Shown in pieces: positions 1,710 through 6,755 of a stretch of DNA of 6,755 bases (positions are counted from its first letter, which is position 1; every line of letters begins with the position of its first letter). The position numbers were made by a program, and so were the translations under genes. The notes below the pieces were generated by a model that was given only the letters and a program-made list of their open reading frames with translations, searched no databases and was not told the origin of the DNA. The DNA lies in the IMG/VR virus record IMGVR_UViG_2706794690_000012; one strand, 5' to 3'. The stretch comes from a virus. Taxonomy: Duplodnaviria > Heunggongvirae > Uroviricota > Caudoviricetes.

Positions 1710-2072
1710 GGGGCTGATTCTGGATTCGACGGGATTTGCGAAACCCAAGGTGCATGCCGAGGGGCGGTTGGCCTCGTAAAAAGCCGCAAAAAATAGTCGC
1801 AAACGACGAAAACTACGCTTTAGCAGCTTAATAACCTGCTTAGAGCCCTCTCTCCCTAGCCTCCGCTCTTAGGACGGGGATCAAGAGAGGTCAAACCCAA
1901 AAGAGATCGCGTGGAAGCCCTGCCTGGGGTTGAAGCGTTAAAACTTAATCAGGCTAGTTTGTTAGTGGCGTGTCCGTCCGCAGCTGGCAAGCGAATGTAA
2001 AGACTGACTAAGCATGTAGTACCGAGGATGTAGGAATTTCGGACGCGGGTTCAACTCCCGCCAGCTCCACCA
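1710..2072 (+). ncRNA. ssrA: tmRNA (SsrA, 10Sa RNA), complete 363-nt mature sequence ending in CCA
   Basis: Begins GGGGCTGATTCTGGATTCGACGGG (tRNA-like acceptor 5' half) and ends GGACGCGGGTTCAACTCCCGCCAGCTCCACCA (T-arm plus acceptor 3' half plus CCA). The internal tag frame is present. The sequence matches E. coli ssrA as I recall it. Confidence 0.95.
1799..1831 (+). other. tmRNA tag-peptide reading frame: GCA AAC GAC GAA AAC TAC GCT TTA GCA GCT TAA, encoding ANDENYALAA plus stop
   Basis: The exact canonical E. coli degradation tag codons, read directly inside ssrA. Confidence 0.9.
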
Positions 2073-2190
2073 CTTTTGACAGGACTGCAACCGGACAGAG
2101 ACTATAAAAACAGTCACTTACGGACACTGACCAGACAGTAAGCGGACCAGAAAAAGACAAAAATATACACGCAAAATGCACGTGCATTTC

Positions 2191-2226
2191 AAAAAAGCCT
2201 CTGATTATGAAGTCAGAGGCTTTTCT
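2191..2226. terminator. Bidirectional rho-independent terminator between ssrA and the convergent phage tail operon
   Basis: Perfect 8-bp stem GCCTCTGA (2197-2204) / TCAGAGGC (2213-2220) with an 8-nt loop, flanked by A6 (2191-2196) and TTTTCT (2221-2226). It lies about 45 nt past the stop of the last minus-strand ORF (2271) and about 120 nt past the ssrA 3' end. Confidence 0.6.
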
Positions 2227-2270
2227 AGTTGTAAATAAGGGTAACAATTTAACACGATGCAGCTTACCAA

Positions 2271-2492
2271 TTACGTAACATCAAACGCTCTAATTGTTCC
2301 CAAATCCTCCAGACCACTCAGCTCCTCTTTCATTTCACGCTGACGGCGATAAATCTCATCGTTGCGATCGACCTGCGCCTGCACCATTGCTGCCGCCAGT
2401 TCTTCCAGTTCCGGCATCGACAGTTTCACCTGCTGATTATCGGCATCACCCCACGCCATATGCGTTTGTGCTGTGACAGATTTTGCCAGCAT
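2271..2492 (-). CDS. Hypothetical small protein (73 aa from the ATG; frame open upstream to 2525), predicted helical; possibly the C-terminal part of a frameshifted tail-fibre chaperone
   Basis: Codon usage is E. coli-like (ctg gaa gaa ctg gcg gca gca atg gtg cag...). It is the last ORF before the terminator in the tail-fibre operon. No clear RBS precedes the ATG at 2490-2492. It overlaps the preceding ORF in another frame. Confidence 0.4.
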   Translation of the reverse strand: MLAKSVTAQTHMAWGDADNQQVKLSMPELEELAAAMVQAQVDRNDEIYRRQREMKEELSGLEDLGTIRAFDVT

Positions 2493-2700
2493 GACTACCG
2501 GGGACAGGCGGCCCAGTGAGTCGGGCTATCTCACCCCATTTGCCACTTTGCAGTTCCTGCCAGATTCGCTGACCCGTCGGTGCGACATCATCAGCGGTGG
2601 CTGTGTAGGGGACTGCCTGGTCCCTGTCGTCAAAAAAAACGTCACAGTCTACTGCGCCACTTTCGGTATAACGGGGATTAATGATTTTTTTAATTTCCAC
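2446..2700 (-). CDS. Hypothetical protein (84 aa, GTG start) directly downstream of the Stf-like gene; possible N-terminal part of a tail-fibre assembly/chaperone protein
   Basis: An in-frame GTG at 2698-2700 is preceded by GAGGAA with a 6-nt spacer, directly after the Stf stop (TGA 2711-2713). The ORF-track ATG at 2758-2760 would overlap Stf by 50 nt. The product ends in a proline-rich stretch (LTGPPVPG) reminiscent of Tfa inter-domain linkers. Confidence 0.4.
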   Translation of the reverse strand: MEIKKIINPRYTESGAVDCDVFFDDRDQAVPYTATADDVAPTGQRIWQELQSGKWGEIARLTGPPVPGSHAGKICHSTNAYGVG

Positions 2701-2710
2701 GGTGCATTCC

Positions 2711-3979
2711 TCACGATGTGCGAATAAAAAGCCCGGGCATTGCGCCAGAGACATGAGCATCCGGCACCCCGGACAGGGCGCTATATGACCCCGGTAATGA
2801 ATGCTCTGAACATCCCGTAATGAAAAATTGTGGGGATGCTATATACGTTCCGGTGGGAGTACTGGGCACTGAAATCCCCACCGGTCCCAGTCGTGAGCCT
2901 CTGTATGACTGCCCCCTGACAAGTCTGATGACTTTATCACCGTCAGCTTCTCCCTGGTACGCAGCAATAATCAGCCCGCCAATGTCAGGGTCTCCCCATC
3001 TGTTGCAGACAGAGCTCGCCACGATTCTGTAAATAATATCTTCTGTGGTTATATTTATTTTCACCCAGCCAGTCAGTCTGGATATGGGCCAGTAGCAGTA
3101 GCGGGTGTGATAAATGGGGCCGTTAATGCCGTAAAAAGTAAGGGATTTGGCTCTGTACCTCGGTTCTGTTGTCTCAGGGCGTGCATCAGTCCACCGGATG
3201 CTGAGCACCCCTTCAAACCGTGTGTCGGGTATGATGATGTCGTAGGGGCCAGCAACGGAATATTCACCTGGCAGCGCATTCCTTACCCAGGCCAGGAAAT
3301 CACTCTTAGTGTCAAAACGGATAACATCTTCAGGCAGAAAAGCACACCCAAAGCCGAATGCGCCGGGTATCGCCAGACGGCCTTTTGTCCGGTCGTAAAT
3401 GTCGCTCTGTGCTTCCATCGTGGCCGCACTTTTCAGCCCCAGATTATCCCGGGACTTCTGTTGTGCCTTTTCGCCTGCTGCTGCGATTTCAGACAGATGG
3501 TTAGCCGTTTTCAGAGTGCCGGTCAGCGCAGCATCAATGTCATTTTTGGCCTGCTCTGCTGCGCGGGCATAACCTGCGGCTGCCGCCACATCCTGCGCCG
3601 TCTGCTGTGCGTTTCCGGCTGCGGCCCCGGCGCTCTGCTGCGCCTGCGCCACCATTTCCTCAAAGCGTTTGACGACATCCGGTTTCAGGTCGCCCTCATC
3701 AGGAGCAATCAGAAAGTCATTCAGCGTGCCGGGCTTTGAGTCGTCGTATACAGCAATGTCGCCAACACAGTACTCGTCGCGCCAGTCCCGTTTCAGATAC
3801 ACGCAATATTTTCCGACCTGTGCCTCAAACGAATATTCACCGTTATTTCCGGTCACTACATCAGCCCTGGTACGCATCACCACTTCTGAGGTGTTTACAC
3901 GGGATTTCAGAATAATCTGGCATCCGGACATGGGGATGCCTGCGCCATCAGTCAGCGCACCTGATATCACTACAGACAT
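2711..3979 (-). CDS. Side tail fibre protein, 422 aa, with a lambda Stf-like N-terminal domain, an Ala/Gln-rich shaft and an unrecognised C-terminal region
   Basis: The N-terminus MSVVISGALTDGAGIPMSGCQIILKSRVNTSEVV...VYDDSKPGTLNDFL parallels lambda Stf (MAVKISGVLKDGTGKPVQNCTIQLKARRNSTTVV...VYEDSQPGTLNDFL; recalled from memory). This is followed by an AAAGNAQQTAQDVAAAAGYARAAEQAK-type shaft. The last roughly 230 aa have no family I recognise. Confidence 0.85.
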   Translation of the reverse strand: MSVVISGALTDGAGIPMSGCQIILKSRVNTSEVVMRTRADVVTGNNGEYSFEAQVGKYCVYLKRDWRDEYCVGDIAVYDDSKPGTLNDFLIAPDEGDLKPDVVKRFEEMVAQAQQSAGAAAGNAQQTAQDVAAAAGYARAAEQAKNDIDAALTGTLKTANHLSEIAAAGEKAQQKSRDNLGLKSAATMEAQSDIYDRTKGRLAIPGAFGFGCAFLPEDVIRFDTKSDFLAWVRNALPGEYSVAGPYDIIIPDTRFEGVLSIRWTDARPETTEPRYRAKSLTFYGINGPIYHTRYCYWPISRLTGWVKINITTEDIIYRIVASSVCNRWGDPDIGGLIIAAYQGEADGDKVIRLVRGQSYRGSRLGPVGISVPSTPTGTYIASPQFFITGCSEHSLPGSYSALSGVPDAHVSGAMPGLFIRTS

Positions 3980-4002
3980 AGTTTTTCTCGCGATAAATTA
4001 AA

Positions 4003-4548
4003 TCAGGAAGAACCTTCCGGAGAGACGGACCATTCAATGGCGTTATATGAGGATTTATCAGTGATGGTGCTGAAATCCATCGCCTGCAGCGATTTCGCGT
4101 AAATACGGTACGCTTTCAGTTTTTCCCGGTCTTCGTCGCTGATTAGCCCCAGCAGCAGGTCTTCTTCCCATTCCCCTGTCCGGGCACTGACCTGAGCCAG
4201 AAGGGCATCACGCTCATCTTCCGCTTTGAGTCTGTAGTCAAAGACAAATTCATCATTGCGGTAAAACCAGTAACCCGGCGCGGTAATGCGGCGGTTGGCG
4301 GTAATATCAGGAACTTCAATAACACTGGCGTTACGGGGTTCAATGCCTGTCACATCCTTACCGACCCACACCACGCGCCCGTCTCCGGTGTAAACCATTT
4401 TTATGGTGTCACTGGCAAAGTTCTTCTGTTCTTCATACCAGTTTTTGCCGTCTTCCGAAAAAAGCCAGGTGACATCATACTGTTTTGTCAGCTGATATTA
4501 TTCCGCGGTTTTCGGATTACCTGCCGTAATATTTTTTAAATGCAACAT
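4003..4548 (-). pseudogene. Tail-fibre assembly protein (Mu U / TfaE-like) interrupted by an in-frame ochre stop at codon 17; the ORF track shows only the distal 131-aa part (4003..4398)
   Basis: The ATG at 4546-4548 sits 2 nt after the upstream tail-fibre stop (TAA 4551-4553). It reads MLHLKNITAGNPKTAE, then TAA at 4498-4500, then continues in the same frame YQLTKQYDVTWLFSEDGKNWYEEQKNF...ITANRR...IEWSVSPE. The N-terminal signature matches Mu U / TfaE-type proteins (MHLKNI.AGN.KT..QY.LTK...DGKNWYEE) as I recall them. Confidence 0.6.
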
Positions 4549-4550
4549 TG

Positions 4551-5603
4551 TTAAATACTCGCTACGTTATACCAGGTGCCATTAATCAGTTTTTGCAGCG
4601 GTCGGTAATACACGCCGTTGACGTTATCCGCTGAGTTACGGCCGGTATCCGATATCGATATCCCTGACAGCCCGTGTCCCGAAGGTGAGCGAAATGTCCA
4701 CGAAACGGTGTTACTGCCGGGGGGGTAATACATTTCATAACCATACCGCACATCCTGCACGCCACCATTTCGCTGCTGGTAACGGGCATCAAAGTTTCCG
4801 TAGTCTGACGGTGTTACCCGTCCTGTAACGTTTACAGCTTTATTACTCTGGATACTGCCACTCTGAAAACGCAACACATGCACGCTATTGGCATAAACAT
4901 CCAGCAGGCCATCACCATTCTGTTTGAATCCGGTGTCATTATCACCAAGAACAATTGAATTCCCCCCCAGGGCGTTCTGAACGCCGATACCCAGCGCACC
5001 ATTGACCTGCGAACCACCGCCAACAGACACTTTATGCGACATGGATATTTCACCCGTCCGCAGATTAATGGTGAACGGGCGCAGGGGACCAATATCGCCA
5101 TTTTCCCCCTGACCTTCACTGGTGGGAATAAGGTGCAGGCACTCTTCCGAACGACGAAAAATCAGGCCAAAAGCTTCGTTGAAAATCCTCAGCGCATTAA
5201 CACCACGGATTTTCAGCTCTCCGGTCATGGTGTCGCCATCACGCTGAACGGCATTTTTTGCCTTATCCACCGTGGGTTTTAATCCGAGGTTTTCAACAGC
5301 CTCATCCCTGTCTTCCACATCCGAAAGGTTATTTTTTATCAGCAATGCCTCTTCGTTAATTGCACCGCCCACCAGCAATAATATAGCCTTATATAGCTGG
5401 TCGTGTTCTTCTTTATTCAGTTCTATCCCGGCCTTCTCAATGACACCACAGATTTCCTCCTGAATGGCATTCCACATGGCACTGTTCAGCCAGGTAGCAA
5501 GACGTCCTGTGCGAAGATTTCCGTCAGTAAATCCGTTCTTACCCGGACCAAACTTATCTTTTACCGCAGTCAGCGTATCAATCCTGTGCATCTTCATCCT
5601 CAT
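4551..5603 (-). CDS. Tail fibre protein (Mu S-like), 350 aa
   Basis: The N-terminal motif FTDGNLRTGRLATWLNSAMWNAIQEEICGVIEKAGIELN resembles the conserved N-terminal region of Mu S-type tail fibres. The C-terminal part is Gly/Asn/Ser-rich. It is followed 2 nt later by the Tfa start. Possible starts at 5603, 5597 or 5591 all overlap the upstream gene. Confidence 0.8.
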   Translation of the reverse strand: MRMKMHRIDTLTAVKDKFGPGKNGFTDGNLRTGRLATWLNSAMWNAIQEEICGVIEKAGIELNKEEHDQLYKAILLLVGGAINEEALLIKNNLSDVEDRDEAVENLGLKPTVDKAKNAVQRDGDTMTGELKIRGVNALRIFNEAFGLIFRRSEECLHLIPTSEGQGENGDIGPLRPFTINLRTGEISMSHKVSVGGGSQVNGALGIGVQNALGGNSIVLGDNDTGFKQNGDGLLDVYANSVHVLRFQSGSIQSNKAVNVTGRVTPSDYGNFDARYQQRNGGVQDVRYGYEMYYPPGSNTVSWTFRSPSGHGLSGISISDTGRNSADNVNGVYYRPLQKLINGTWYNVASI

Positions 5604-6168
5604 CTGGATAGGAAAATAAAACGACGGTGTGTGACGGACATAATTTATTAATCACGCACTCCGCAACCGTATCCCCCCACGTCCGGATCGGTGTGTTGCA
5701 GGCGTCCGTGCATGTCTGCCACTGAGCACCGGCATCCATCGGCAACGTCACACGCCAGAAATAACGCCAGCGATCTCCCCATTCCGGATCGGGGCTTGCA
5801 TCCAAGTGCTGGAACTGTTCGATCGTTACGCCGGTATATCCCAGCGCCTCAAGCTGATCCAGGAAGAACTGCTCATTTATGCCACCAGCCACATTGGCTT
5901 TTGCTTCAAGACGTTGCTGACGCTGGCGTAATGTCTGGGTTCCGACAGGGGAACAGGAATCAGGTAAACCATACAATTCTTCATAACGTTCAATCAGCTC
6001 TGTGGACTGACCGGGATCGATTTCAATCACCAGTTCATCAGCCCGCTGGTGAACACGCACAAGCGATGGTGCCAGACCGTCAAGTACACCGTCGGTATCT
6101 GACCATGCAGGCCCCGGCGGCATCAGTCCGTACAGCAGCTTTGTATAATCATCCTGTAACGAATCCAT
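5578..6168 (-). CDS. Phage tail protein, Mu gp48 / P2 gpI / YmfQ-like (DUF2313-type), 196 aa
   Basis: The N-terminus MDSLQDDYTKLLYGLMPPGPAWS and the C-terminal TWGDTVAECVINKLCPSHTVVLFSY follow the pattern of YmfQ/gp48-like tail proteins (from memory). It sits between the baseplate J-like and tail-fibre genes as in Mu and P2. Its ATG (6166-6168) overlaps the upstream stop in a TAATG arrangement. Confidence 0.75.
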   Translation of the reverse strand: MDSLQDDYTKLLYGLMPPGPAWSDTDGVLDGLAPSLVRVHQRADELVIEIDPGQSTELIERYEELYGLPDSCSPVGTQTLRQRQQRLEAKANVAGGINEQFFLDQLEALGYTGVTIEQFQHLDASPDPEWGDRWRYFWRVTLPMDAGAQWQTCTDACNTPIRTWGDTVAECVINKLCPSHTVVLFSYPDEDEDAQD

Positions 6169-6566
6169 TATTTACTCCTTGCCGGGTCATAAGCCTGCCA
6201 GGTGATCTCGCCGAGCACCGGAAGCTCGGTCTCCCCCAGGTCAATATCCGATGAAGGGACGATTAACCGGTGGGCCACTTCACCAGCAGACAAACTGATG
6301 GCCTCACTGATTCTGGACAGATACATACGCCCCTCTGGCACACCATCCCGTAACATCAGTGCATTCAGCTCTGCTTTTATTGCAGTCCTGATCTGCGGTG
6401 TGTCTTTCGATAATGCAATCGTCATCGGGATGACTTTTTCTGTGGCACCGAATACATACAATCCGCTTCCGGCAACAGGTGCCAGAGGAAGGATGTGGTC
6501 CCTGACTGCGTTAATCACGCTTTCATCCGGGGCCGGGCGTTCCGGATCGTTTGTCGCCACCATCAC
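6168..6566 (-). CDS. Baseplate J-like protein (Mu gp47 / P2 gpJ family), C-terminal portion; the frame stays open upstream to an in-frame TAA at 6681-6683 and again from there to the window edge
   Basis: The ORF-track product MVATNDPERPAPDESVINAVRDHILPLAPVAGSGLYVFGATEKVIPMTIAL... has the layout of baseplate J C-terminal halves. The in-frame upstream translation VGSITGGADPDYVIWAKEVQGINRAWTFRHWKGTGTVGV also looks coding. The gene is therefore probably truncated or disrupted rather than a true 132-aa protein. Confidence 0.6.
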   Translation of the reverse strand: MMVATNDPERPAPDESVINAVRDHILPLAPVAGSGLYVFGATEKVIPMTIALSKDTPQIRTAIKAELNALMLRDGVPEGRMYLSRISEAISLSAGEVAHRLIVPSSDIDLGETELPVLGEITWQAYDPARSK

Positions 6567-6755
6567 GCCAACCGTTCCAGTGCCTTTCCAGTGTCTGAAA
6601 GTCCATGCACGGTTAATACCCTGAACTTCTTTCGCCCAGATAACATAATCAGGGTCTGCGCCCCCGGTGATGCTGCCAACTTACTGATTTAGTGTATGAT
6701 GGTGTTTTTGAGGTGCTCCAGTGGCTTCTGTTTCTATCAGCTGTCCCTCCTGTTC

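Follow-up and report, generated by a model that had tools for sequence, protein, structure and literature searches.

We analysed a 6,755-nucleotide stretch of DNA (the window) in which the tmRNA gene ssrA is followed by a convergent operon of phage tail genes. Our comparisons indicate that positions 2073-2247 are, very probably, an arm supplied by a phage at the junction of ssrA with a defective phiP27-like prophage, and that the short repeats within it would dock recombination proteins. The feature is of a known kind and has an ordinary lambda-type arrangement, namely the integrase-distal att junction of a defective prophage. What the analysis adds is a well-supported comparative map of where proteins may bind in the att arms of a widespread integrase family that targets ssrA.

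The left third of the window is enterobacterial and carries yfjF-ratA on the minus strand and smpB (1013-1495). An intact ssrA gene follows on the plus strand at 1710-2072; it was called by ARAGORN, matched Rfam RF00023 at full length (295.8 bits, model positions 1-374) and was 100% identical to most E. coli ssrA genes. The minus-strand operon of tail genes, assigned with Pfam, occupies 2271-6665. The window was 100% / 99.9% identical to chromosomes assigned in the literature to Shigella sonnei, with CP022457.1 being strain 2015C-3566 and CP060117 being UKMCC1015.

We compared the junction with complete E. coli genomes and with free phages. All 5426 complete E. coli genomes matched ssrA, and a homologue of 2073-2270 was present in 572 of them. 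The initial annotation had pointed out that the repeats would be host sequence if they occurred unchanged at empty ssrA sites; we found that nearly all E. coli matches ended at window positions 2072-2077 and that the segment was carried by free phages. In the genome of Escherichia phage LMessi, the integrase gene was followed by an arm of 134 bp, by the block matching the ssrA 3' end and by a homologue of 2073-2247; opposite-strand tail-fibre genes came next. Cronobacter phage phiES15 and Citrobacter phage phiNP, read from their circular records, had the same layout. The suggestion that the repeats lie in a genuine att arm was thus borne out, since in all three genomes the segment directly adjoins the core. 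For annotation, the boundary of the element is to be set at 2072/2073.

The same type of arm was found at the end of five different phage backbones. These were the Mu-type tail of the window, the Stx2e phages with a P2-type tail (cq9 and A36), phiES15, phiNP, and lambda-like phages, the last comprising the O157:H7 prophage at ssrA, CP-1639, LMessi and PhiR12. Homology to the phiP27-like tail module began only at 2271. In E. coli FDAARGOS_944, a tail module of 97.8% identity lies at another locus, and its similarity to the window starts exactly at 2271, at the stop codon of the last tail gene. By these comparisons the arm belongs to the integration module and travels with the integrase rather than with the tail genes. 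Because this closest E. coli copy of the tail module lies elsewhere and lacks the 2073-2270 arm, the ssrA integration module was acquired by module exchange. Next to the FDAARGOS_944 tail module (extract positions 18180-19821), a frameshifted gene of the ipaH effector type occupies the place of the att arm.

The att core, shared by phage attP and host ssrA, comprises 25 bases at 2048-2072 on the plus strand, as defined with cq9, LMessi, phiES15 and phiNP. Near-identity reaches back to about 2037, giving a core of 25-36 bases. The core recurs inside the attP of LMessi, phiES15 and phiNP, and in phiES15 the attP is annotated at 1-26. For phiNP, experiments have established the 25-bp attP/attB, the phage integrating into E. 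coli K-12 at the 3'-terminal 25 bp of ssrA (PMC6456863). Within the window the core was single-copy, with no second copy of the ssrA 3' end.

No integrase gene was found inside the window. The initial annotation had regarded a junction at ssrA without an integrase as unusual and had proposed that the integrase was deleted or lay at the far junction. The second placement was correct for intact relatives. E. coli cq9 carries a complete Stx2e prophage that begins with the arm beside ssrA; at its far end, about 43 kb from ssrA, we found a 390-aa integrase gene, a 130-bp arm and then a direct repeat of the ssrA 3' end, CGGGTTCAACTCCCGCCAGCTCCACCA. The tail of the cq9 prophage is of P2 type, and the phiP27 match belongs to the window and not to cq9. 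A P4-like island with its own integrase lies beyond the far end of the cq9 prophage. The premise itself did not hold, as the standard lambda-type order places the integrase and the tail fibres at opposite ends. Integrase genes adjacent to a tRNA gene account for only 15% of cases according to Panis et al. 2010 (PMC2951348). An integrase beside the RNA gene is the rule for P4-like islands, not generally, and its absence beside ssrA is no sign of an odd element.

The integrases of cq9, LMessi and a second phage found in S. sonnei each contained an Arm-DNA-bind_2 domain (PF12167) and a Phage_integrase domain (PF00589). Judged by this domain content, the integrases of these phages can be classed as heterobivalent. 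Searches of NCBIfam with the integrase gave sub-threshold matches of Xer type and nothing else. An ORF of 68-69 aa overlaps the start of the integrase gene and is about 70% conserved between lineages; this excisionase-like ORF had no match in Pfam or NCBIfam. We also retrieved the 10-kb flanks of the window's tail-fibre protein from eight S. sonnei-type chromosomes, and these reach as far as the tape-measure gene. An intact far junction of the prophage would be expected to show a PF12167 integrase gene, next an arm that bears GGAC units with an ATGCAC pair, and finally GGTTCAACTCCCGCCAGCTCCACCA.

The repeats in the arm share the motif RGAC. In 2073-2165 we counted seven RGAC on the plus strand, starting at 2082, 2093, 2099, 2122, 2133, 2144 and 2155, and none on the minus strand, against a background of 0.59 per 93 bp over the whole window. 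Seven is also the plus-strand maximum for the window, reached in the 93-bp stretches starting at 2066-2068, with no comparable cluster elsewhere in the window; on the minus strand no 93-bp stretch held more than three. Shuffles of the region that preserved dinucleotides gave a mean of 2.7 RGAC, and seven or more arose with P = 0.00125. The two GGAC sites beginning at 2082 and 2093 are separated by 11 bp, and the four RGAC sites beginning at 2122, 2133, 2144 and 2155 are exactly in phase; five of the six RGAC intervals are 11 bp or a non-multiple of it. Of the five motifs quoted in the initial annotation, four lie exactly where it placed them, and GACAGGA lies at 2078-2084 rather than 2079-2085.

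Three groups of sites can be distinguished in the arm, all on the plus strand. Nearest the core is a pair of RGAC sites at 2081-2098 (AGGACT at 2081-2086 and CGGACAG at 2092-2098), which was invariant in an alignment of eight phages. In that alignment the RGAC cores in general were invariant and the spacers differed. The phased array of four RGAC sites follows at 2121-2160; three of these sites are general, and the one at 2122 is peculiar to the lineage of the window. Beyond it, at 2162-2183, lies a tandem pair of 11-bp units, T1 and T2 (AATATACACGC AAAATGCACGT), which is of a lineage-specific type. Between the core-proximal pair and the array, an A-tract with a predicted IHF-like site (AAAAACAGTCACTTA) was found at 2105-2120 by its match to the consensus. 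Positions 2108-2120 differ by one mismatch from the IHF consensus WATCARNNNNTTR, but matches as good as this are frequent in the window (17 against 9.5 expected); the site may be a bend site. The initial description of the junction as free of ORFs was loosely right, save that two mechanical minus-strand ORFs, 1962-2117 and 2008-2247, cross it. Both run antisense into ssrA, and conservation has a period of 11 bp, not 3 bp; a protein-coding reading of ORF 2008-2247 was rejected.

We then examined how far the pattern extends. One genome per species was scanned for the core followed by 9 nt, GGAC, 7 nt and GGAC. The scan gave 97 stretches, of which 87 adjoin the 3' end of ssrA; they represent 84 distinct arms from about 85 species. 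The genera with the arm were Escherichia, Enterobacter, Klebsiella, Yersinia, Xenorhabdus, Photorhabdus, Erwinia, Pantoea, Serratia, Aeromonas and Tolumonas. Arm positions 31-100 were free of the search constraint, and unforced counts were taken there. On average, each of the 84 arms carried 2.44 plus-strand and 0.19 minus-strand RGAC, with 0.52 expected, and successive RGAC spacings were 11 bp in 108 of 128 cases and 22 bp in nine. As the arms are homologous, these counts do not represent independent events. The information content peaked at the GAC cores, where it was near-maximal, and at AAAAACAG..TTA of the IHF-like site, and the spacers varied. The meaningful signal is this conservation of cores against free spacers, which points to selection on the repeats. 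In Yersinia, Serratia, Aeromonas and Tolumonas the pattern follows a different ssrA 3' end (TTCAAATCCCCCCAGCTCCACCA). The Aeromonas arms have a tandem pair of the TGATCCA type, and their third array is degenerate.

Forty-eight distinct integrase-proximal arms were compared with the distal arms. The proximal arms carry TTGGACAGAATCAGGACGTTAGACAGACC, then ATATGCACGTAAAATGCAC and, after a variable stretch, TCAATGAGTTA near the core, a possible bend-site sequence of that arm. They contain three RGAC sites at 11-12-bp spacing, followed by a T1/T2 pair of the matching type. T1/T2 types differ by lineage (ATGCACG, GGAKCCG and GATACGC, with TGATCCA in Aeromonas) and match between the two arms of one phage, being ATGCAC in LMessi, phiES15 and cq9 and GGAKCCG in phiNP. 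Local alignment of proximal with distal arms singled out the last GAC unit together with T1/T2; for three of the four phages, and solely in direct orientation, its score exceeded that of every one of 500 shuffles. These results showed that repeated arm-type sites, both RGAC units and T1/T2, are conserved at the sequence level on both arms. An alternative reading of positions 2120-2185 is a series of six units in phase (GGACA, AGACA, GGACC, AGACA, ATACA and ATGCA), in which case T1 and T2 may be diverged copies of the RGAC unit. In Xenorhabdus koppenhoeferi the pair has grown to four or more copies of AAAAGATACGC, about 85-125 nt past the core.

The origin of the junction is shown by the relatives, in which attP runs from the integrase gene through a proximal arm (about 130 bp) and a core of 25-36 bases identical to the ssrA 3' end to a distal arm that abuts the last part of the tail-fibre operon. 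By recombination inside this core, ssrA was rebuilt from host 5' and phage 3' sequence; the distal arm was left beside ssrA, and the integrase gene and the other arm went to the far end of the prophage. On the lambda paradigm, the repeats would be docking sites for the N-terminal arm-binding domain of the integrase, for the small excisionase-like protein, or for both. A bend at the A-tract site could let arm-bound integrase reach the core, as in lambda. We lean towards RGAC as the arm site of the integrase, because it is universal, because it forms three clusters on both arms and because the N-domain is strongly conserved. Counting against the docking of recombination proteins, the two arms together hold about 12 repeat units, which exceeds the need of an integrase tetramer.

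The main rival assignment keeps the arm and exchanges its proteins, with the phased RGAC array bound by an excisionase (recombination directionality factor) and the T1/T2 pair serving as the arm sites of the integrase. We regard this as possible, though distinctly the less probable assignment. The excisionases lambda Xis, P2 Cox and L5 Xis occupy tandem, helically phased sites, and the arrangement here, with four to six direct repeats every 11 bp, is similar; the 69-aa ORF overlapping the start of the integrase gene could encode such a protein. The T1/T2 type shifts by lineage yet is matched between arms, as expected of sites that co-evolve with a protein. However, three RGAC clusters are spread over both arms, while excisionase sites are usually confined to one arm, and the N-domain of the integrase is strongly conserved between two lineages of different T type, which fits a universal RGAC better. 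The small ORF, moreover, lacks a match in either family database, and between these two lineages the integrase and the small protein diverge equally (68-72% identity), so that covariation with T1/T2 does not discriminate between them.

A role of the repeats as RNA is very improbable. They would then belong to the 3' trailer of the precursor of ssrA and, in the free phage, to the 3' untranslated region of the integrase mRNA, like lambda sib. Every repeat does lie on the strand transcribed from ssrA and from the integrase gene, with a strong hairpin and U run downstream at 2193-2224. However, helical phasing at 11 bp is a property of DNA, no Rfam family matched, no conserved pairing involved the repeats, and the arm-binding domain of the cognate integrase predicts DNA arm sites. 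The chance is slighter still that 2073-2247 is host sequence with the boundary elsewhere, or that the repeats arose by chance from base composition. GA and AC dinucleotides abound in the region, and shuffling it already gives a mean of 2.7 RGAC. Against this stand the limits of the E. coli matches, the presence of the segment inside free phage genomes, and motif positions that are kept across about 85 species while the spacers vary; on these grounds both a host origin of the segment and a chance origin of the repeats were rejected.

With the segment read as a phage-supplied arm, the closest known system is attP/attR of lambda with Int, IHF and Xis. In both, the tyrosine integrase is heterobivalent, with arm binding assigned to a separate domain, and a short core is shared with the host. 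Both have two arms with repeated sites (candidate sites here); lambda has a bend site between the arm sites and the core, where the window has a candidate one. In both, the integrase gene lies by one arm and the tail-fibre genes by the other, so that they come to opposite junctions after integration; 2073-2247 is equivalent to the P arm in attR. Unlike in lambda, where the core lies between gal and bio, the core here is the 3' end of ssrA. The arm-binding domain is PF12167 here, whereas the lambda type is PF09003, and lambda Int matched the integrase weakly (E = 1e-4, residues 93-247 only). The repeat unit also differs, being RGAC with 11-bp phasing and more units, and a similar composite of the last RGAC unit with T1/T2 is present here on both arms in direct orientation.

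The temperate, ssrA-integrating phages phiNP and phiES15 share with the window the core of 25-26 bp, a homologous distal arm, the RGAC positions and the integrase family, whereas their virion modules are different. In addition, phiNP has a T1/T2 pair of the GGAKCCG type instead of the ATGCAC type, and phiES15 has two extra genes between integrase and arm. The published descriptions of these two phages, in their accessible parts, define the core alone. No published arm sites for this ssrA integrase family, and no protein binding to such sites, were found in the searchable literature, and the RGAC repeat pattern appears to be undescribed so far.

Other elements at ssrA could be placed in the same way. 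The O157:H7 ssrA prophage (Sp17 type) and CP-1639 have the arm after ssrA with 80-93% identity over 2073-2247, including all RGAC sites and a terminator. They differ from the window in their lambda-like tail genes, in a dinI-like gene after the arm and in a cargo of type III effectors. The Stx2e phage phiP27 resembles the window in a tail-fibre and baseplate module of 91% identity, with a Mu-like order ending in tail-fibre genes. P4-like islands at ssrA (CP4-57 type) share the target gene and a core at its 3' end and often stand in tandem with this phage family. In contrast, they have the integrase gene directly beside ssrA and a downstream sequence of a different class with no RGAC array; in the window, the first gene after ssrA is an opposite-strand tail-fibre assembly gene and not an integrase gene.

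A bidirectional intrinsic terminator was recognised at 2193-2224 from an inverted repeat and from folding. It consists of a perfect 12-bp inverted repeat (2193-2204 and 2213-2224) around an 8-nt loop, and an A run and a T run flank the stem at its two ends. The hairpin folded at -20.6 kcal/mol on the minus strand (z = -7) and at -19.7 kcal/mol on the plus strand (z = -6). Other phages have a hairpin at the same position with different stem sequences. A simple consensus scan for terminators flagged a weaker candidate at 2165-2187 and missed the main hairpin, because A-T pairs lengthen its stem into the T run; folding revealed it. On the minus strand the hairpin ends the tail-fibre operon. As integration displaces the former 3' flank of ssrA, the hairpin is the first terminator downstream of ssrA, and on the plus strand it would terminate the ssrA precursor in place of the host terminator. 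A perfect 16-bp palindrome, AAATGCAC/GTGCATTT, lies at 2174-2189 and overlaps T2. This palindrome can give rise to a weaker minus-strand hairpin, the second of the arm, which a T-rich run follows (2165-2187), just past the main terminator.

The tail operon does converge on ssrA, as first noted: it lies on the minus strand, ends at 2271 and matches the Pfam families DUF4376, phage_tail_N, Caudo_TAP, Mu Gp48 and Baseplate_J. Its last gene, a DUF4376 tail-fibre assembly gene (2271-2760), is broken. In related chromosomes this gene is intact and encodes 207 aa. The window has lost 134 bp from it at 2514-2525, between the imperfect 12-bp repeats AGTGAGTCGGGGC and AGTGAATGGGGC; the 134 bp are kept in eight near-identical S. 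sonnei-type chromosomes, and their loss splits the gene into two overlapping ORFs. Upstream in the operon is a 422-aa tail-fibre gene of the phage_tail_N family (2711-3979; PF08400, E = 2.4e-63); many S. sonnei-type chromosomes encode exactly this protein. The Caudo_TAP gene for tail-fibre assembly (4003-4548) has an in-frame TAA after codon 17 (near 4498-4500), and some related chromosomes carry the full gene of 162 aa. A second tail-fibre gene, of 350 aa (4551-5603), had a weak gp37_trimer match and 91% DNA identity to the tail-fibre region of phiP27. It is followed by a gene for a Mu Gp48-like baseplate protein (5578-6168; PF10076, E = 2.3e-25) and by a C-terminal fragment of a baseplate J gene (6168-6665; Baseplate_J), which is cut by IS1 and whose frame is open up to 6665.

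The end of the IS1 copy occupies 6666-6755, and this stretch had several matches per related chromosome, at the InsA/InsB genes of IS1. Three inactivating lesions thus lie within the window: the 134-bp deletion, the nonsense codon in the Caudo_TAP gene and the IS1 in J. The match of phiP27 to window positions 2271-6667 was 91% identity over 65%, and the gene order in related loci was tape measure, DNA_circ_N, gpP, Gp45, GP46, J, Gp48 and fibre genes. By this content and similarity, we class the element as a decayed phiP27-like prophage in a Shigella sonnei-type chromosome. As the prophage is decaying, the arm here would be a relic. In related chromosomes, another IS1 lies between the genes for tape measure and DNA circulation.

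In two S. sonnei-type chromosomes (CP032523.1 and CP044191.1), a second phage lies between ssrA and the remnant (about 11843-14700 of the extracts). It has ORFs of 272 aa and 82 aa and then a 391-aa PF12167 integrase of the same family. Its presence beside ssrA implies that the rebuilt ssrA core remains a usable target. The junction of this second phage with the remnant is attP-like, with a proximal arm of the GAGCCG type, the core, and the window's distal arm of the ATGCAC type, so that the T1/T2 types are mismatched.

We tentatively consider a two-tier organisation of the arm sites, although the odds appear to be against it. It would combine a universal, one-stranded RGAC every 11 bp with a lineage-specific end pair, the composite being duplicated on both sides of the core. 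If so, the variable pair would set whose proteins excise which prophage in the tandem arrays that are common at ssrA, which would also explain the stability of mismatched hybrid junctions such as those of the two S. sonnei strains.

The comparisons also provide a searchable att signature, consisting of the core, 9 nt, GGAC, 7 nt, GGAC and the phased array, found in about 85 species from Escherichia to Aeromonas. The integrase family has a universally conserved target gene and, in the case of phiNP, is already functional in E. coli K-12, and the well-sampled map of candidate sites could guide the design of a minimal attP for single-copy integration vectors.

On the host side, an IS4-family element lies beyond yfjF in S. 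sonnei-type chromosomes, to the left of the window. Past this element the gene order varies among these chromosomes, with raiA-pheA in some and bamE-recN in one. The differing gene order beyond yfjF indicates IS-mediated rearrangement near ssrA.
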